From a virus (lineage: Duplodnaviria; Heunggongvirae; Uroviricota; Caudoviricetes): DNA of 19,675 nucleotides. The stretch is taken from the IMG/VR virus record IMGVR_UViG_2706794670_000001; one strand, written 5' to 3'. Of the stretch, positions 1 to 19,500 are shown in pieces. The position numbers and the translations under genes were made by a program. A model generated the notes under the pieces. That model saw only the letters and a list, made by a program, of their open reading frames with translations, did not search any database and was not told the DNA's origin. Every line of letters starts with the position of its first letter. The stretch's first letter is position 1.

Positions 1-257
1 GGTTATCGCTCGCCACGGGAATATCTGCGGCAGCGGGCTTGTAATGGGTTAAGTGATAACAGATGTCTGGAAATATAGGGGCAAATCCAATCGTCGCCGT
101 ATTCCCGTATTAACAGAGACCGTAGCCCGACGGGGAACTCCTTCTGCGCGAGTGTGCGGGAATAATCAAAAACGATGCACACCGGGGTTACCGGGTACAC
201 ATATTTCATCATGCCAGCGAGTCCGGTTCTGGCACGGAAGAAACCGGACGTTATGAT

Positions 258-668
258 TTAGTGCGGAAATATTTGTGTAGTGTTCTGTATGTTCTCAGTA
301 AAGAGTAATGAATTATCAAAGGTATAGTAATACCTTTTGTTTTCGTGGATATTTGTAATCCATCTGAAAACCCCTGCTGTAGCAAGATTTTTCCTGTATT
401 CGTAAAATGATAACTCTCCTGATTTGAATCCTTTTAAGGTGGCTTCTATAAGGCATTTATTTTTTGAAAATCTTACATTTACAACCTTACCCTGTCCTTT
501 TATTAAAACCGTATTATCGTTTTCAAGAACAAGATGAATATTCTCTGTGGCTAAATAGTAAATGTAATGTGAGACATTGTGACGTTTTAGTTCAGAATAA
601 AACCAGTGATAGTTTAAATTATTTCGCACTTTATCGAATATTTGTTTAAAAATGGCAACCTGAGCCAT
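258..668 (-). CDS. hypothetical protein (136 aa), AT-rich cos-proximal moron; possibly YbcV-like (DUF1398), unverified
   Basis: Minus-strand ORF with stop at 258-260. The track starts it at 683 (141 aa), but the second in-frame ATG at 668 is preceded by GGAAGG about 7 nt upstream, whereas the first ATG has no Shine-Dalgarno, so I prefer 668. Coding region is roughly 30% GC against ~55% for the structural genes. No hydrophobic segment, so probably cytoplasmic. Family assignment is from memory only. Confidence 0.55.
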
Positions 669-725
669 TGTAGTACCTTCCATGTGATATGAGGGGGCGT
701 AGTCTGCACGATTATCTAAATTGCT

Positions 726-959
726 TCAATCTGGTCTAACCTGTTTTCTGAGCAATTCAGTAATGTCACTCTTTTCTTTGTTTGCTTCAGGCGAAACTCT
801 TTTTTCTGAGCACAGTCTCCGGCGGCAGGCTTCAATGACCCAGGCTGAGAAATTCCCGGACCCTTTTTGAACAAGAGCGATGTTAATTTGTTCAATCATT
901 TGGTTAGGAAAGCGGATGTTGCGGGTTGTTGTTCTGCGGGTTCTGTTCTTCGTTGACAT
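726..959 (-). CDS. small basic protein (77 aa) with ribbon-helix-helix-like N-terminus; resembles YlcI/DUF3950-type proteins found next to cos in lambdoid prophages
   Basis: Minus-strand ORF, ATG at 959-957, stop TGA at 728-726. The Arg/Thr-rich N-terminal tail followed by NIRFPNQMIEQINIALVQKG...FSAWVIEACRRRL has a strand-helix-helix pattern typical of Arc/MetJ/CopG folds. Lies ~200 bp left of cosN, upstream of the 136-aa ORF on the same strand. Confidence 0.6.
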   Translation of the reverse strand: MSTKNRTRRTTTRNIRFPNQMIEQINIALVQKGSGNFSAWVIEACRRRLCSEKRVSPEANKEKSDITELLRKQVRPD

Positions 960-1158
960 GAGGTTGCCCTGTATTCAGTGTCGCTGATTTGTATTGTCTG
1001 AAGTTGTTTTTACGTTAAGTTGATGCAGATCAATTAATACGATACCTGCGTCATAATTGATTATTTGACGTGGTTTGATGGCGTAGATGCACGTTGTGAC
1101 ATGTAGATGATAATTATTATCATTTTGCGGGTCCTTTCCGGCGATCCGACAGGTTACG

Positions 1159-1170
1159 GGGCGGAAGGCG
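1159..1170. other. cosN cohesive-end 12-mer (variant): GGGCGGAAGGCG
   Basis: The flanks ...CCGACAGGTTACG on the left and CGCGGGTTTTCGCTATTTATGA on the right match the lambda right-end and left-end sequences as I recall them. The 12 nt between them occupy the position of the lambda cohesive end. Confidence 0.6.
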
Positions 1171-1204
1171 CGCGGGTTTTCGCTATTTATGACAATTTTC
1201 CGGT

Positions 1205-1330
1205 TTAAGGCGTTTCCGTTCTTCTTCGCCGTAACCTAATGTTTTTATTTAAAACACCCCCTGAAAAGAAAGGAAACGACAGGTGCTGAAAACGGGCTTT
1301 TTGGCCTCTGTCGTTTCCTTTCTCTGTTTT
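1205..1330 (+). promoter_or_regulatory. cosB terminase small-subunit binding region (R3, R2, R1 repeats)
   Basis: Three copies of a CGTTTCC(T/G)TT core: 1211-1228 cgtttccgttcttcttcg, 1268-1283 in inverted orientation (aaaggaaacgacaggt), and 1308-1326 ctgtcgtttcctttctctg. They sit between cosN and the nu1 start, as in lambda cosB. Confidence 0.6.
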
Positions 1331-1347
1331 TGTCCGTGGAATGAACA

Positions 1348-1867
1348 ATGGAAGTCAACAAAAAGCAGCTGGCTGACATTTTCGGTGCGAGTATCCGTAC
1401 CATTCAGAACTGGCAGGAACAGGGAATGCCCGTTCTGCGAGGCGGTGGCAAGGGTAATGAGGTGCTTTATGACTCTGCCGCCGTTATAAGATGGTATGCC
1501 GAAAGGGATGCTGAAATTGAGAACGAAAAGCTGCGCCGGGAAGTTGAAGAACTGCGGCAGGCCAGCGAGACAGATCTCCAGCCAGGGACTATTGAGTACG
1601 AACGCCATCGACTTACGCGTGCGCAGGCCGACGCACAGGAGCTGAAAAATGCCAGAGACTCCGCTGAAGTGGTGGAAACCGCATTCTGTACTTTCGTGCT
1701 GTCGCGGATCGCAGGTGAAATTGCCAGTATTCTCGACGGGATCCCCCTGTCGGTGCAGCGGCGTTTTCCGGAACTGGAAAACCGACATGTTGATTTCCTG
1801 AAACGGGATATCATCAAAGCCATGAACAAAGCAGCCGCGCTGGATGAACTGATACCGGGGTTGCTGA

Positions 1868-1893
<26 letters not shown>
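1348..1893 (+). CDS. nu1: terminase small subunit gpNu1
   Basis: 181-aa ORF beginning MEVNKKQLADIFGASIRTIQNWQEQGMPVL, which matches lambda Nu1 in sequence and length. Stop TAA at 1891-1893; overlaps the start of A. Confidence 0.95.
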
Positions 1894-5595
<3,702 letters not shown>

Positions 5596-5615
<20 letters not shown>

Positions 5616-6915
5616 TCTCCCGCATATTGCCAGCATGGCTTTTAATGAGCCGCTGATGCTTGAACCCGCCTATGCGCGGGTTTTCTTTTGTGCGCTTGCA
5701 GGCCAGCTTGGGATCAGCTGCCTGACGGATGCAGTATCCGGCGACAGCCTGACTGCCGGAGAGGCACCCGCGGCGCTGGCGTTATCCGGTGATGATGACG
5801 GACCACGACAGGCCCGCAGTTATCAGGTAATGAACGGCATCGCCGTGCTGCCGGTGTCCGGCACGCTGGTCAGCCGGACGCGGGCGCTGCAGCCGTACTC
5901 GGGGATGACCGGTTACAACGGCATTATCGCCCGTCTGCAACAGGCTGCCAGCGACCCGATGGTGGACGGCATTCTGCTCGATATGGACACACCGGGCGGA
6001 ATGGTGGCGGGAGCATTTGACTGCGCTGACATCATCGCCCGTGTGCGTGACATAAAGCCGGTATGGGCGCTGGCCAATGACATGAACTGCAGCGCAGGTC
6101 AGCTGCTTGCCAGTGCCGCCTCCCGGCGTCTGGTCACGCAGACCGCCCGGACAGGCTCCATCGGCGTCATGATGGCTCACAGTAATTACGGCGCTGCACT
6201 GGAGAAACAGGGCGTGGAAATCACGCTGATTTACAGCGGCAGCCATAAGGTGGATGGCAACCCCTACAGCCATCTACCGGATGATGTCCGGGAAACATTG
6301 CAGTCCCGGATGGATGCAACCCGCCGGATGTTTGCACAGAAGGTGTCGGCATATACCGGCCTGTCCGTGCAGGCTGTGCTGGATACCGAGGCTGCAGTGT
6401 ACAGCGGTCAGGAGGCCATTGATGCCGGACTGGCTGATGAACTTGTTAACAGTACCGATGCGATCACCGTCATGCGTGATGCACTGGATGCACGTAAATC
6501 CCGTCTCTCAGGAGGGCGAATGACCAAAGAGACTCAATCAACAACTGTTTCAGCCACTGCTTCGCAGGCTGACGTTACTGGCGTGGTGCAAGCGACGGAG
6601 GGCGAGAACGCCAGCGCGGCGCAGCCGGACGTGAACGCGCAGATCACCGCAGCGGTTGCGGCAGAAAACAGTCGCATTATGGGGATCCTCAACTGTGAGG
6701 AGGCTCACGGACGCGAAGAACAGGCACGCGTGCTGGCCGAAACCCCCGGTATGACCGTGGAAACGGCCCGCCGTATTCTGGCCGCAGCACCACAGAGTGC
6801 ACAGACGCGCAGTGACACTGCGCTGGATCGTCTGATGCAGGGGGCACCGGCACCGCTGGCTGCAGGTAACCCGGCATCTGATGCCGTTAACGATTTGCTG
6901 AACACACCAGTGTAA
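5596..6915 (+). CDS. C: head maturation protease / scaffold gpC
   Basis: GTG start at 5596 preceded by GAGGAGGAGAAG, overlapping the last 20 nt of B. Translation (M)TAELRNLPHIASMAFNEPLMLEP... is 439 aa. The track ORF begins further upstream at 5461, but that extension lies inside B coding sequence and is rejected. Confidence 0.9.
6310..6915 (+). CDS. nu3: scaffolding protein gpNu3 (in-frame internal start within C)
   Basis: Internal ATG at 6310 in the C frame gives MDATRRMFAQKVSAYTGLSV... of 201 aa sharing the C stop, which is the lambda C/Nu3 nested arrangement. Confidence 0.75.
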   Translation: MDATRRMFAQKVSAYTGLSVQAVLDTEAAVYSGQEAIDAGLADELVNSTDAITVMRDALDARKSRLSGGRMTKETQSTTVSATASQADVTGVVQATEGENASAAQPDVNAQITAAVAAENSRIMGILNCEEAHGREEQARVLAETPGMTVETARRILAAAPQSAQTRSDTALDRLMQGAPAPLAAGNPASDAVNDLLNTPV

Positions 6916-6924
6916 GGGATGTTT

Positions 6925-7257
6925 ATGACGAGCAAAGAAACCTTTACCCATTACCAGCCGCTGGGCAATAGTGACCCGGCTCATACCGCAACCGCGCCCG
7001 GCGGATTGAGTGCGAAAGCGCCTGCAATGACCCCGCTGATGCTGGACACCTCCACCCGTAAGCTGGTTGCGTGGGATGGCACCACCGACGGTGCTGCCGT
7101 TGGCATTCTTGCGGTTGCTGCTGACCAGACCAGCACCACACTGACGTTCTACAAGTCCGGCACGTTCCGTTATGAGGATGTGCTCTGGCCGGAGGCTGCC
7201 AGCGACGAGACGAAAAAACGGACCGTGTTTGCCGGAACGGCAATCAGCATCGTTTAA
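6925..7257 (+). CDS. D: head decoration protein gpD
   Basis: [27 protein letters not shown]... of 110 aa. AAGGGA Shine-Dalgarno 5 nt upstream of the ATG at 6925; the track start at 6919 adds two residues and is less likely. Confidence 0.92.
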
Positions 7258-9154: not shown

Positions 9155-9586
9155 ATGGCCATAAAAGGTCTTGAGCAGGCCGTTGAAAACCTCAGCCGTA
9201 TCAGCAAAACGGCGGTGCCCGGTGCCGCCGCAATGGCCATTAACCGCGTTGCTTCATCCGCGANNNNNNNNNNNNNNNNNNNNNNNNNNNNNNNNNNNNN
9301 NNNNNNNNNNNNNNNNNNNNNNNNNNNNNNNNNNNNNNNNNNNNNNNNNNNNNNNNNNNNNNNNNNNNNNNNNNNNNNNNNNNNNNNNNNNNNNNNNNNN
9401 NNNNNNNNNNNNNNNNNNNNNNNNNNNNNNNNNNNNNNNNNNNNNNNNNNNNNNNNNNNNNNNNNNNNNNNNNNNNNNNNNNNNNNNNNNNNNNNNNNNN
9501 NNNNNNNNNNNNNNNNNNNNNNNNGTCTTCCGAAAGAGCTGGGCTATGCGCTGCAGCATCAACTGAGAATGGTAATAAAGCGATGA
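9155..9586 (+). CDS. Z: tail completion protein gpZ (spans N-run 9264-9524; true length unknown)
   Basis: N-terminus MAIKGLEQAVENLSRISKTAVPGAAAMAINRVASSA and C-terminus [19 protein letters not shown] flank the N-run in one frame. The stop overlaps the U start (ATGA). Confidence 0.85.
   Translation: MAIKGLEQAVENLSRISKTAVPGAAAMAINRVASSAXXXXXXXXXXXXXXXXXXXXXXXXXXXXXXXXXXXXXXXXXXXXXXXXXXXXXXXXXXXXXXXXXXXXXXXXXXXXXXXXXXXXXXXXLPKELGYALQHQLRMVIKR
9264..9524. other. run of N (261 nt) inside Z
   Basis: Directly visible in the sequence. Confidence 1.
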
Positions 9587-11580: not shown

Positions 11581-14095
11581 ACCGGTAGGCGATCTGGTCG
11601 TTGATTTGAGTCTGGATGCGGCCAGATTTGACGAGCAGATGGCCAGAGTCAGGCGTCATTTTTCCGGTACGGAAAGTGATGCGAAAAAAACAGCGGCNNN
11701 NNNNNNNNNNNNNNNNNNNNNNNNNNNNNNNNNNNNNNNNNNNNNNNNNNNNNNNNNNNNNNNNNNNNNNNNNNNNNNNNNNNNNNNNNNNNNNNNNNNN
11801 NNNNNNNNNNNNNNNNNNNNNNNNNNNNNNNNNNNNNNNNNNNNNNNNNNNNNNNNNNNNNNNNNNNNNNNNNNNNNNNNNNNNNNNNNNNNNNNNNNNN
11901 NNNNNNNNNNNNNNNNNNNNNNNNNNNNNNNNNNNNNNNNNNNNNNNNCACCTCGCTGGCGGTGGCGACCGGTGCGCTGGCGTATGCCTGGTATCAGGGC
12001 AACTCAACCCTGTCCGATTTCAACAAAACGCTGGTCCTTTCCGGTAATCAGGCGGGACTGACGGCAGATCGTATGCTGGTCCTGTCCAGAGCCGGGCAGG
12101 CGGCAGGGCTGACGTTTAACCAGACCAGCGAGTCACTCAGCGCACTGGTTAAGGCGGGGGTAAGCGGTGAGGCTCAGATTGCGTCCATCAGCCAGAGTGT
12201 GGCGCGTTTCTCCTATGCATCCGGCGTGGAGGTGGACAAGGTCGCTGAAGCCTTCGGGAAGCTGACCACAGACCCGACGTCGGGGCTGACGGCGATGGCA
12301 CGCCAGTTCCATAACGTGACGGCGGAGCAGATTGCGTATGTTGCTCAGTTGCAGCGTTCCGGCGATGAAGCCGGGGCATTGCAGGCGGCGAACGAGGCCG
12401 CAACGAAAGGGTTTGATGACCAGACCCGCCGCCTGAAAGAGAACATGGGCACGCTGGAGACCTGGGCAGACAGGACTGCACGTGCATTCAAATCCATGTG
12501 GGATGCGGTGCTGGATATTGGTCGTCCTGATACCGCGCAGGAGATGCTGATTAAGGCAGAGGCTGCGTTTAAGAAAGCAGACGACATCTGGAATCTGCGC
12601 AAGGATGATTATTTCGTTAACGATGAAGCACGGGCGCGTTACTGGGATGATCGTGAAAAAAAACGCCTGGAGCGGGATGCAGCCCAAAAGAGGGTAGATC
12701 AACAGCGTCAACAGGACAAAAATGCGCAGCAGCAGAGCGATACCGAAGCGTCACGGCTGAAATATACCGAAGAGGCGCAGAAGGCTTACGAACGGCTGCA
12801 GACGCCGCTGGAGAAATATACCGCCCGTCAGGAAGAACTGAACAAGGCACTGAAAGACGGAAAAATCCTGCAGGCAGATTACAACACGCTGATGGCGGCG
12901 GCGAAAAAGGATTATGAAGCGACGCTGAAAAAGCCGAAACAGTCCGGCGTGAAGGTGTATGCGGGCGATCGTCAGGAAGACAGTGCTCATGCGGCCCTGC
13001 TGACGCTTCAGGCAGAACTCCGGACGCTGGAGAAGCATGCCGGAGCGAATGAGAAAATCAGCCAGCAGCGCCGGGATTTGTGGAAGGCAGAAAGTCAGTT
13101 CGCGGTACTGGAGGAGGCGGCACAACGTCGCCAGCTGTCCGCACAGGAGAAATCCCTGCTGGCGCATAAAGACGAGACGCTGGAGTACAAACGCCAGCTG
13201 GCTGCACTTGGTGACAAGGTTACGTATCAGGAGCACCTGAATGCGCTGGCGCAGCAGGCGGATAAATTCGCACAGCAGCAACGGGCAAAACGGGCAGCCA
13301 TTGATGCGAAAAACCGGGGGCTGACTGACCGGCAGGCAGCGCGGGAAGCCACGGAACAGCGCCTGAAGGAACAGTATGGCGATAATCCTCTGGCGCTGAA
13401 TAACGTCATGTCAGAGCAGAAAAAGACCTGGGCGGCTGAAGACCAGCTTCGCGGGAGCTGGATGGCAGGCCTGAAGTCCGGCTGGAGTGAGTGGGAAGAG
13501 AGCGCCACGGACAGTATGTCACAGGTTAAAAGTGCAGCCACGCAGACCTTTGATGGTATTGCACAGAATATGGCGGCGATGCTGACCGGCANNNNNNNNN
13601 NNNNNNNNNNNNNNNNNNNNNNNNNNNNNNNNNNNNNNNNNNNNNNNNNNNNNNNNNNNNNNNNNNNNNNNNNNNNNNNNNNNNNNNNNNNNNNNNNNNN
13701 NNNNNNNNNNNNNNNNNNNNNNNNNNNNNNNNNNNNNNNNNNNNNNNNNNNNNNNNNNNNNNNNNNNNNNNNNNNNNNNNNNNNNNNNNNNNNNNNNNNN
13801 NNNNNNNNNNNNNNNNNNNNNNNNNNNNNNNNNNNNNNNNNATCTCTACCGGCTGATGCGCGGCTATGCGGAAGGTGGTTATGTGGGCGGTGCCGGAAGT
13901 CCGGCGCAGATGCGGCGGGCTGAAGGCATTAATTTTAATCAGAACAATCACGTGGTGATTCAGAACGACGGTACGAATGGTCTGCCAGGTCCACAGATGA
14001 TGAAGGCCGTGTATGACATGGCCCGCAAGGGTGCCCGTGATGAAATTCAGACACAGATGCGTGATGGTGGCCTGTTCTCCGGAGGTGGACGATGA
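11573..14095 (+). CDS. H: tail tape measure protein gpH (spans N-runs 11698-11948 and 13592-13841; apparent frame changes at both)
   Basis: N-terminus MAEPVGDLVVDLSLDAARFDEQMARVRRHFSGTESDAKKTA, a long middle segment TSLAVATGALAYAWYQGNSTLSDFNKTLVLSGNQAGL...AQNMAAMLTG, and C-terminus NLYRLMRGYAEGGYVGG...MRDGGLFSGGGR. The three segments are in different frames relative to one another across the N-runs. Stop TGA at 14093-14095 overlaps the M start. Confidence 0.9.
11698..11948. other. run of N (251 nt) inside H
   Basis: Directly visible in the sequence. Confidence 1.
13592..13841. other. run of N (250 nt) inside H
   Basis: Directly visible in the sequence. Confidence 1.
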
Positions 14096-15020: not shown

Positions 15021-15279
15021 NNNNNNNNNNNNNNNNNNNNNNNNNNNNNNNNNNNNNNNNNNNNNNNNNNNNNNNNNNNNNNNNNNNNNNNNNNNNNNNN
15101 NNNNNNNNNNNNNNNNNNNNNNNNNNNNNNNNNNNNNNNNNNNNNNNNNNNNNNNNNNNNNNNNNNNNNNNNNNNNNNNNNNNNNNNNNNNNNNNNNNNN
15201 NNNNNNNNNNNNNNNNNNNNNNNNNNNNNNNNNNNNNNNNNNNNNNNNNNNNNNNNNNNNNNNNNNNNNNNNNNNNNNN
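15021..15279. other. run of N (259 nt) covering the L/K junction
   Basis: Directly visible in the sequence. Confidence 1.
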
Positions 15280-16526: not shown

Positions 16527-19500
16527 ATGGGTAAAGGCAGCAGTAAGGGGCATACCCCGCGCGAAGCGAAGGACAACCTGAAGTCCACGCAGCTGCTGAG
16601 TGTGATCGATGCCATCAGCGAAGGGCCGGTTGAAGGTCCGGTGGATGGATTAAAAAGCGTGCTGCTGAACAGTACGCCGGTGCTGGACAGTGAGGGGAAT
16701 ACCAACATCTCCGGCGTCACGGTGGTGTTCCGGGCAGGTGAGCAGGAGCAGTCACCGCCGGAGGGATTTGAATCCTCCGGCTCCGAGACGGTGCTGGGTA
16801 CGGAAGTGAAATATGACACGCCGATCACCCGGACCATCACGTCGGCAAACATTGACCGACTGCGTTTTACCTTCGGTGTACAGGCACTGGTGGAAACCAC
16901 CTCAAAGGGAGACAGGAATCCGTCTGAAGTTCGCCTGCTGGTTCAGATACAGCGTAACGGTGGCTGGGTGACGGAAAAAGACATCACCATTAAGGGCAAA
17001 ACCACCTCGCAGTATCTGGCCTCGGTGGTGGTGGATAACCTGCCGCCGCGCCCGTTTAATATCCGGATGCGCAGAATGACGCCGGACAGCACCACAGACC
17101 AGCTGCAGAACAAAACGCTCTGGTCGTCATACACCGAAATCATCGATGTGAAACAGTGCTACCCGAACACGGCACTGGTCGGCGTACAGGTGGATTCGGA
17201 GCAGTTCGGCAGCCAGCAGGTGAGCCGTAATTATCATCTTCGCGGGCGCATTCTGCAGGTGCCGTCGAACTATAATCCGCAGACGCGGCAATACAGCGGT
17301 ATCTGGGACGGAACGTTAAAACCGGCATACAGCAACAACATGGCCTGGTGTCTGTGGGATATGCTGACCCATCCGCGCTATGGCATGGGGAAACGTCTTG
17401 GTGCGGCAGATGTGGATAAATGGGCGCTGTATGTCATCGGCCAGTACTGTGACCAGTCGGTGCCGGACGGCTTTGGCAGCACGGAGCCGCGCATCACCTG
17501 TAATGCCTGGCTGACCACACAGCGCAAGGCGTGGGATGTGCTCAGTGATTTCTGCTCGGCGATGCGCTGTATGCCGGTATGGAACGGGCAGACGCTGACG
17601 TTCGTGCAGGACCGACAGTCGGATAAGGTGTGGGCCTATAACCGCAGTAATGTGGTGATGCCGGATGATGGCGCGCCGTTCCGCTACAGTTTCAGCGCCC
17701 TGAAAGACCGCCATAATGCCGTTGAGGTGAACTGGATTGACCCGGATAACGGCTGGGAGACGGCGACAGAGCTTGTGGAGGATACGCAGGCCATTGTCCG
17801 TTACGGTCGTAACGTCACGAAGATGGATGCCTTTGGCTGTACCAGCCGGGGGCAGGCACACCGCGCCGGGCTGTGGCTGATTAAAACGGAACTGCTGGAG
17901 ACGCAGACCGTGGATTTCAGCGTGGGTGCTGAAGGGCTTCGTCATGTACCGGGCGATGTCATTGAAATCTGCGATGATGACTATGCCGGTATCCGCACCG
18001 GCGGGCGCGTGCTGGCGGTGAACAGCCAGACCCGGACGCTGACGCTCGACCGTGAAATCACGCTGCCATCCTCCGGCACCACGCTGATAAGCCTGGTTGA
18101 CGGGCAGGGGAATCCGGTCAGCGTGGAGGTCCAGTCCGTCACCGACGGCGTGAAGGTAAAAGTGAGCCGTGTTCCTGACGGTGTTGCTGAATACAGCGTG
18201 TGGGGGCTGAAGCTGCCGACGCTGCACCAGCGATTGTTCCGCTGCGNNNNNNNNNNNNNNNNNNNNNNNNNNNNNNNNNNNNNNNNNNNNNNNNNNNNNN
18301 NNNNNNNNNNNNNNNNNNNNNNNNNNNNNNNNNNNNNNNNNNNNNNNNNNNNNNNNNNNNNNNNNNNNNNNNNNNNNNNNNNNNNNNNNNNNNNNNNNNN
18401 NNNNNNNNNNNNNNNNNNNNNNNNNNNNNNNNNNNNNNNNNNNNNNNNNNNNNNNNNNNNNNNNNNNNNNNNNNNNNNNNNNNNNNNNNNNNNNNNGCTG
18501 ACAGTCCGGGCAGTAAATGCGTGGGGGCAGCAGGGCGATCCGGCGTCGGTATCGTTCCGGATTGCCGCACCGGCAGCGCTGTCGCGGATTGAGCTGACGC
18601 CGGGCTATTTTCAGATAACCGCCACGCCGCATCTTGCGGTTTATGATCCGACGGTACAGTTTGAGTTCTGGTTCTCGGAAAAGCGGATTGCGGATATCAG
18701 GCAGGTTGAAACCACAGCACGCTATCTTGGCACGGCGCTGTACTGGATAGCCGCCAGTATCAATATCAAACCGGGCCATGATTATTACTTTTATATCCGC
18801 AGTGTGAACACCGTTGGCAAATCGGCATTCGTGGAGGCTGTTGGTCAGCCGAGTGATGATGCATCCGGTTATCTGGATTTTTTCAAAGGCGAGATAGGGA
18901 AAACCCATCTGGCTCAGGAGCTGTGGACGCAGATTGATAACGGTCAGCTTGCGCCTGACCTGGCTGAAATCAGGACGTCCATTACGGATGTCAGCAATGA
19001 AATCACGCAGACCGTCAATAAGAAACTGGAAGACCAGAGTGCGGCAATTCAGCAGATACAGAAGGTTCAGGTTGATACAAATAATAACCTGAACAGCATG
19101 TGGGCTGTGAAGCTGCAGCAGATGCAGGACGGACGCCTTTATATCGCGGGTATTGGTGCCGGTATTGAGAACACCCCTGACGGCATGCAGAGTCAGGTGC
19201 TGCTGGCGGCGGACAGGATTGCGATGGTTAATCCTGCGAATGGCAACACAAAACCGATGTTTGTTGGTCAGGGCGATCAGATATTCATGAACGACGTGTT
19301 CCTGAAACGCCTGACGGCCCCCACCATTACCAGCGGTGGAAATCCATCGGCATTTTCCCTGACTCCGGACGGAAAGCTGACCGCTAAAAATGCGGATATC
19401 AGTGGCAGTGTGAATGCGAACGCCGGGACGCTCAACAATGTCACGGTAAATGAAAACTGTACGATTAAGGGCATGCTGGAGGCGACTCAGGTCAGAGGTG

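Follow-up and report, generated by a model that had tools for sequence, protein, structure and literature searches.

According to Feiss et al. (2015, PMC4669245), it is common for lambda-like phages to differ from lambda at bp 7–12 of cosN, the right half of the site at which terminase makes the 12-nt cohesive ends. The natural departures from lambda given there are those of N15 and phiD326, at bp 9 and 12, and of Gifsy-1, at bp 8, 9 and 11, and many mutations at bp 7–12 had minimal effect (PMC4669245). According to the account in the same paper, the left-half change G2C costs about 10-fold in yield whereas the symmetric C11G costs nothing (Xu and Feiss 1991), and this asymmetry of cosN is dependent on cosB (Hang, Catalano and Feiss 2001). 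The lambda large terminase gives equal yields whether the site is cosN-lambda or cosN-N15, and a 2-nt mismatch between cohesive ends lowers the viable yield about 4-fold (PMC4669245). Within cosB, R3 is bound by the small terminase and serves to hold the large subunit in place for nicking of the bottom strand (PMC4669245, PMC9026076).

We analyzed a 19,675-nt stretch of tailed-phage DNA (IMG/VR record IMGVR_UViG_2706794670_000001; hereafter the window), in which the 12-mer at 1159–1170 reads GGGCGGAAGGCG. The first-pass annotation of this DNA had set it against the lambda cohesive end; the lambda 12-mer it gave was right, as bp 1–12 of the lambda reference (NC_001416) are GGGCGGCGACCT, which is not the 12-mer of the window, and its count of differences at five of the last six positions stands. 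These are bp 7 C>A, 8 G>A, 9 A>G, 10 C>G and 12 T>G, with C11 the same, such that the right half of cosN (1165–1170, + strand) is AAGGCG in place of the lambda CGACCT, next to a conserved, lambda-identical left half GGGCGG (1159–1164, + strand). The variant hexamer is not an inverted lambda hexamer, the reverse complement of CGACCT being AGGTCG. We consider GGGCGGAAGGCG, with a probability of roughly 0.85, to be no lesion but a functional natural cosN allele in a lambda-like prophage.

The substitutions form a sharply bounded cluster. When positions 1087–1350 of the window are aligned with lambda −72 to +193, there are 14 differences at the 259 aligned positions outside bp 7–12 (5.4%), versus five at the six positions inside (binomial P of about 2.6e-6, or about 7e-4 after correction for the approximately 260 possible 6-bp stretches). 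Unchanged with respect to lambda are cosQ, the left half of cosN, the CG pair beyond each nick site and the motifs of all three R sites. cosQ (GGGTCCT, 1129–1135, + strand), the packaging-termination signal, corresponds to lambda −30 to −24 and lies at the same distance from cosN. cosN itself, CG|GGGCGGAAGGCG|CG (1157–1172), consists of the 12-bp cohesive end with one CG pair on each side. Going by the alignment to the lambda genome ends and the published nick positions (PMC9026076, PMC4669245), the top strand would be nicked at 1158/1159 and the bottom strand at 1170/1171. The variant also makes a palindromic BssHII site, GCGCGC at 1168–1173, which the lambda allele does not have and whose midpoint coincides with the predicted bottom-strand nick.

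The cosB of the window retains the lambda architecture. R3 (AAGGCGTTTCCGTTCT, about 1207/1208–1223, + strand) is identical to lambda bp 50–65 and as far from bp 1 as in lambda, the inverted R site R2 (AGAAAGGAAACGACAG, 1267–1282, − strand) is identical to lambda bp 109–124, and R1 (CTGTCGTTTCCTTTCT, 1308–1323, + strand) is identical to lambda bp 151–166. The cosN–R3 spacing is therefore that of lambda, and only R1 is shifted, a 1-nt deletion at lambda bp 137 having brought it 1 nt nearer to R2. From cosN to R1, the changes lie in the intervals between the sites: a single substitution, A35C, between cosN and R3, substitutions at lambda bp 71, 73, 78, 97 and 102 between R3 and R2, of which those at bp 71, 73 and 78 fall in the region of the IHF site I1, and G134A along with the deletion between R2 and R1.

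Directly downstream are the two terminase genes. Nu1, the small terminase subunit of 181 aa (1348–1893, + strand; Pfam Phage_Nu1, E = 2e-101), differs from lambda Nu1 at 3 of 181 residues. The large subunit gpA (1868–3814, + strand; Pfam GpA_ATPase and GpA_nuclease) has three differences from lambda in its unmasked part, T151S, D185E and L404R, while residues of about 429–516 are hidden by a run of Ns at 3152–3417. This run has 266 nt where the lambda counterpart has 245 nt, and gpA accordingly counts 648 codons versus 641, an in-frame excess of 21 nt that is either a real 7-codon insertion or the product of a mask that did not preserve length. L404R (about 3077–3079) is rare, being found at 2 of 40 other AAGGCG loci and at none of 38 lambda-type loci; the variant cosN does not require L404R. 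D401, three residues away, lies in what we take to be the nuclease region of gpA. The first-pass impression that the flanks, the cosB R sites, Nu1 and gpA are all lambda-like is thus borne out by the 14/259 flank differences, the identical R3, R2 and R1, and the few protein substitutions.

The head and tail ORFs run on to J, which is cut by the end of the window. There are six N runs of about 250–266 nt (3152–3417, 9264–9524, 11698–11948, 13592–13841, 15021–15279 and 18247–18496), which break up gpA, tail genes and J and account for the approximately 8% of the window left uncovered in the whole-window BLAST. Just 5′ of cos are a DUF1398 and a DUF3950 (YlcI/YnfO-like) gene (258–683 and 726–959, both on the − strand), an arrangement also annotated in E. 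coli strain 582 and as in many E. coli lambdoid prophages. The elements of a lambda-like cos that were looked for are in place, with cosQ about 30 bp upstream, GGGCGG and the CG flanks, a complex cosB and Nu1/gpA directly downstream. Within the readable sequence up to J, the damage expected of a cryptic prophage was not seen: no cos subsite is lost, and Nu1 is intact along with what can be read of gpA. Because of the mask in gpA, its additional 21 nt, L404R, the other N runs and the end of the window in J, packaging competence cannot be asserted for this individual element.

Compared with its closest described counterparts, the allele is, as far as its sequence tells, an ordinary and not a defective one among the natural variants of the cosN right half, a class already known. 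It has five right-half changes, whereas the natural alleles of Feiss et al. have two or three (PMC4669245). The cosN of N15 and phiD326 (GGGCGGCGTCCG, checked on the N15 sequence) is likewise a natural right-half variant of the 12-nt end and shares the G at bp 12 with the window allele, but it differs from lambda at bp 9 and 12 only, whereas the window allele differs from it at bp 7, 8, 9 and 10. In N15, furthermore, cosB is simple, with one R site only, and the large terminase is about 65% identical to that of lambda (PMC4669245), in contrast to the complex lambda cosB and lambda-type terminase of the window; N15-like telomere phages such as PhiR46_1 carry the window's allele (see below). Gifsy-1 displays several right-half changes too, at another set of positions (as described in PMC4669245). 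The right-half mutants of Xu and Feiss (1991) and Hang et al. (2001), in which cosB is intact and which are reported in PMC4669245 to be barely affected in yield and cleavage, were made in the laboratory, whereas the window allele is natural and spans five positions; the five changes together could still bring a quantitative drop in nicking efficiency. A full-text search of the searchable literature with GGGCGGAAGGCG and its reverse complement returned only unrelated plant and Streptomyces papers and no phage paper.

The allele recurs widely. An exact 28-mer across the variant is present in 78 IMG/VR contigs, and a 52-mer, chosen so that the 28-base seed of megablast has to overlap the variant hexamer, matches 170 places, spread over 159 of the 5,426 complete E. 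coli genomes, against 8,400 places in 4,480 genomes for the corresponding lambda-type 52-mer. AAGGCG therefore has a share of about 2% of the lambda-type cos places in these genomes; among the alleles of E. coli it appears to rank second in frequency, and in a lambda-type background it appears to be the one farthest from lambda. In a phage collection, the variant and lambda-type 52-mers have 2 and 73 places, respectively. GGGCGGAAGGCG was present in all 11 matches that were retrieved and read, together with several distinct cosQ–cosN spacers. Since the identical 12-mer occurs in many independent assemblies, a sequencing error, which the first-pass annotation had allowed for, is ruled out, and its other suggestion of natural cos diversity is backed by this recurrence and by the neighboring alleles described below. 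Among species-representative genomes, the exact 28-mer is found only in Escherichia sp. E1V33; the window is not a contig of that strain, the identity being about 97.7%. Over its whole length, the window matches many E. coli prophages at about 97% identity, with the best match in a complete E. coli genome no higher than about 97% overall, and the best match of the 301-nt cos region is 98.3%.

Further right halves came to light when IMG/VR was scanned with the context ACG-GGGCGG-N6-CGCGGGTTTTCGC. At bp 7–12 there are CAGGCG (4 contigs), CAGACG (3), GAGCGT (2) and CTGACG, AAGCGT, AAGGCT and CGACCG (1 each), and one-step neighbors link AAGGCG to CAGGCG, CAGACG and AAGGCT. Among the loci that were fetched from IMG/VR with the hexamer left free, there are two states only, CGACCT and AAGGCG. 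For the left half, the whole 12-mer was left free and a change was required at bp 2, 4 or 6. In the scanned context, no IMG/VR contig has a base other than G at bp 2 or other than C at bp 4. bp 6 is changed in 15 contigs (GGGCGT-CAGGCG in 12, GGGCGT-CAGACG in 1 and GGGCGA-CGACCT in 2), and the variable zone therefore comprises bp 6–12, reaching one base into the left half. Across 77 loci that were selected by Nu1 alone, GGGCGG and the flanking ACG are invariant and cosQ is nearly so. The spacer of about 20 bp between cosQ and cosN (1136–1156 in the window) is itself variable across the carriers (e.g., GACAGGTTACG, GGCAGGCTACG, AGAACGTTACG and GGCCTGTTACG), with its length and the terminal ACG kept.

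Deposited phages with the allele are PhiR46_1 (PV340565.1) and YDC107_1, the latter classified as Ravinvirus. PhiR46_1, an infectious phage as per its GenBank record, which gives E. coli ECOR13 in the host field, belongs to the N15-like telomere phages, carries telL/telR, ParA/ParB and a primase, and has a complete lambda-type head/tail module (Nu1-A-W-B-C-D-E-...-J). In PLSDB, the variant 52-mer is found in 23 records, all of them non-mobilizable and mostly of 42–50 kb (range about 34–92 kb), from E. coli, E. fergusonii, E. albertii and Shigella sonnei. The lambda-type 52-mer is found in 33 records, many of which resemble chromosome fragments or the 48.5-kb lambda control DNA in unrelated genera. 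A perfect lambda cos is present in "plasmids" of about 40–109 kb from Rahnella, Bacillus thuringiensis, Alicyclobacillus, Paenibacillus and Salmonella, one of them of 48,502 bp, and these records are probably lambda control DNA or assembly contamination. AAGGCG is thus strongly enriched on non-mobilizable phage-plasmids of about 45 kb, of the telomere type like PhiR46_1, relative to chromosomal prophages. Most of the remaining carriers are prophage or plasmid sequences. The first-pass annotation had named commonness among packaging-competent lambdoid phages as a finding that would overturn its concern about packaging, and the wide recurrence of the variant, PhiR46_1 and the approximately 45-kb phage-plasmids of four species included, largely answers to this.

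The allele is found with lambda-type, 21-like and satellite-type modules of cosB and small terminase. In the second of these, a non-lambda cosB module, it is the N-terminus of the small terminase that we take to be phage 21-like, and in the third, a satellite-like cos with AAGGCG is followed by a 183-aa Nu1-family protein. One such satellite-like element (IMGVR_UViG_2645728091_000007, 1–7200, with cos near 4116) precedes a 5′-truncated lambdoid capsid gene E and codes for a D5/primase-like protein, an SSB, E-like and D-like capsid proteins of its own, AlpA, a Nu1-family protein and Abi_C, in addition to the AAGGCG cos; its relatives have GGGCGT-CAGGCG or CTGACG. Certain flanking haplotypes occur with either allele. 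The presence of either allele on the same flanks, together with the several backgrounds, implies that AAGGCG is old or mobile relative to its flanks.

The first-pass annotation had feared that the cluster could reduce nicking by terminase and hence packaging. In its strongest form, this would make the variant an inactivating lesion in a decaying prophage, in which the altered right half blocks the bottom-strand nick and maturation of the DNA is lost. Consistent with such a lesion, five of the six positions by the bottom-strand nick site are altered, the two-fold symmetry of cosN is down from five to four symmetric pairs, and the gpA of this element is partly unreadable and has the rare L404R. 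The same allele is widespread, however, and the terminase genes next to it are intact no less often than those next to the lambda allele: Nu1 is intact at 42/43 loci with AAGGCG versus 50/61 with the lambda allele, and gpA at 38/43 versus 45/61. No extra gene decay was seen beside AAGGCG in this comparison of 43 variant with 61 lambda-allele loci. The allele is moreover present in a deposited phage and common on the phage-plasmids of four species, and the published right-half changes, C11G included, are nearly neutral in the account of PMC4669245. With these observations, the wide recurrence, the absence of terminase co-variation (see below) and the reported tolerance of changes at bp 7–12 (PMC4669245), the fear of impaired nicking or packaging is not supported, and we hold an inactivating lesion to be very unlikely.

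A functional natural allele might instead be read by a terminase of its own. On this account, a gpA that co-evolved with cosN recognizes the new right half and confers a private packaging specificity, which would fit the sharp dimorphism of the lambda-type background, where the 77 IMG/VR loci selected solely by a Nu1 99–100% identical to that of the window comprise 69 with CGACCT, 8 with AAGGCG and no intermediates. Such a switch in nicking specificity predicts residues that follow the allele, and for this Nu1 and gpA were extracted downstream of every fetched cos. When AAGGCG loci are compared with CGACCT loci (40 versus 38 full-length gpA and 61 versus 72 Nu1 sequences), the frequency difference at any one residue is at most 0.21, and this maximum falls at ordinary polymorphic sites. 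The gpA residues D401, E408, E515 and E586 are invariant with both alleles. The absence of co-variation largely refutes a switch; further, both alleles lie beside a Nu1 99–100% identical to that of the window, AAGGCG goes with three types of small terminase and cosB, and both the lambda terminase and N15-hybrid terminases are without cosN specificity (PMC4669245). We therefore find a dedicated terminase specificity scarcely credible.

The reading of a natural allele handled by an ordinary lambda-type terminase finds a plausible mechanism, drawn from published work on lambda (PMC4669245, PMC9026076), in the anchoring of the right-hand nick. Nu1 would bind R3, R2 and R1 of cosB, and the bound Nu1 would set one gpA nuclease center at a fixed distance, resulting in a bottom-strand nick that separates bp 12 from bp 13. 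The top strand would be cut before bp 1 by a second gpA, in dependence on base-specific contacts with GGGCGG. As the right-hand nick would be placed by anchoring and not by sequence reading, bp 7–12 (and bp 6) would be weakly constrained and free to drift. With cosQ, GGGCG, the CG flanks and R3 held fixed, such drift could leave an island of substitutions within near-identical flanks. We infer that terminase nicks AAGGCG normally and at the positions given above, because all that the cited work marks as constrained, from cosQ and the left half through the CG flanks to R3 and its distance from cosN, is kept and only the tolerated half is changed.

The first-pass annotation had also raised a change in end compatibility, and this part of its concern is supported in silico. 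Cutting at the cosN of the window would yield the 5′ overhangs GGGCGGAAGGCG and CGCCTTCCGCCC. The predicted duplex of the window's ends with each other (−18.6 kcal/mol) is close to those of lambda with lambda (−19.0 kcal/mol) and N15 with N15 (−19.9 kcal/mol). The window overhangs would thus pair mutually as stably as those of lambda, and the element's own cyclization is therefore predicted to be unaffected. Between lambda and N15 ends the value is about −15.2 kcal/mol, and between lambda and window ends it is −9.5 kcal/mol, the pairing being limited to the 6 bp of the GGGCGG block. By this model, the ends of the window should join poorly with lambda-type ends, clearly worse than across the lambda/N15 mismatch, and the mismatch would matter only for pairing with the ends of other phages and not for own cyclization.

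A more adventurous proposal builds on this incompatibility, namely that the right half (bp 6–12) is a "compatibility tag", with divergent alleles maintained since they stop the end-to-end joining of co-resident or co-infecting lambda-like DNAs. The two common alleles are 5/6 positions apart, and yet G+C content (10/12 in both the lambda and the window 12-mer) and self-duplex stability are preserved. The predicted cross-duplex has just 6 bp and −9.5 kcal/mol, and a mismatch of 2 nt is enough to lower the viable yield about 4-fold (PMC4669245). Also in its favor are the multiple lambda-type cos sites of many E. coli genomes, with as many as 8 places in one genome, and the strong enrichment of AAGGCG on phage-plasmids relative to chromosomes. 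The one-step neighbors and the several rarer alleles are, however, what simple drift would produce; common descent could explain the phage-plasmid enrichment, and a benefit from blocking cross-joining is speculative. We accordingly consider selection for incompatibility unlikely, and favor the functional natural allele that has drifted in the tolerated half of cosN.

As such, GGGCGGAAGGCG is to be treated as a legitimate lambda-type cohesive end in annotation. Tools that seek the canonical lambda 12-mer, such as terminus callers and cosmid or packaging designs, will miss it, and DNA with GGGCGGAAGGCG ends is predicted neither to anneal nor to ligate to lambda-type ends. The allele adds to what nature shows of the functional asymmetry of cosN, where bp 6–12 all vary (bp 11 by way of the literature), whereas bp 2 and bp 4 never do in the scanned context. 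A new question would arise from it only if the alleles turned out to be under selection for incompatibility. In that event, the right halves would be alleles exchanged among lambda-type, 21-type, telomere-phage and satellite backgrounds that define "cohesive-end incompatibility groups" among E. coli prophages, and their mismatched ends would prevent mixed end-joining and the formation of hybrid chromosomes.
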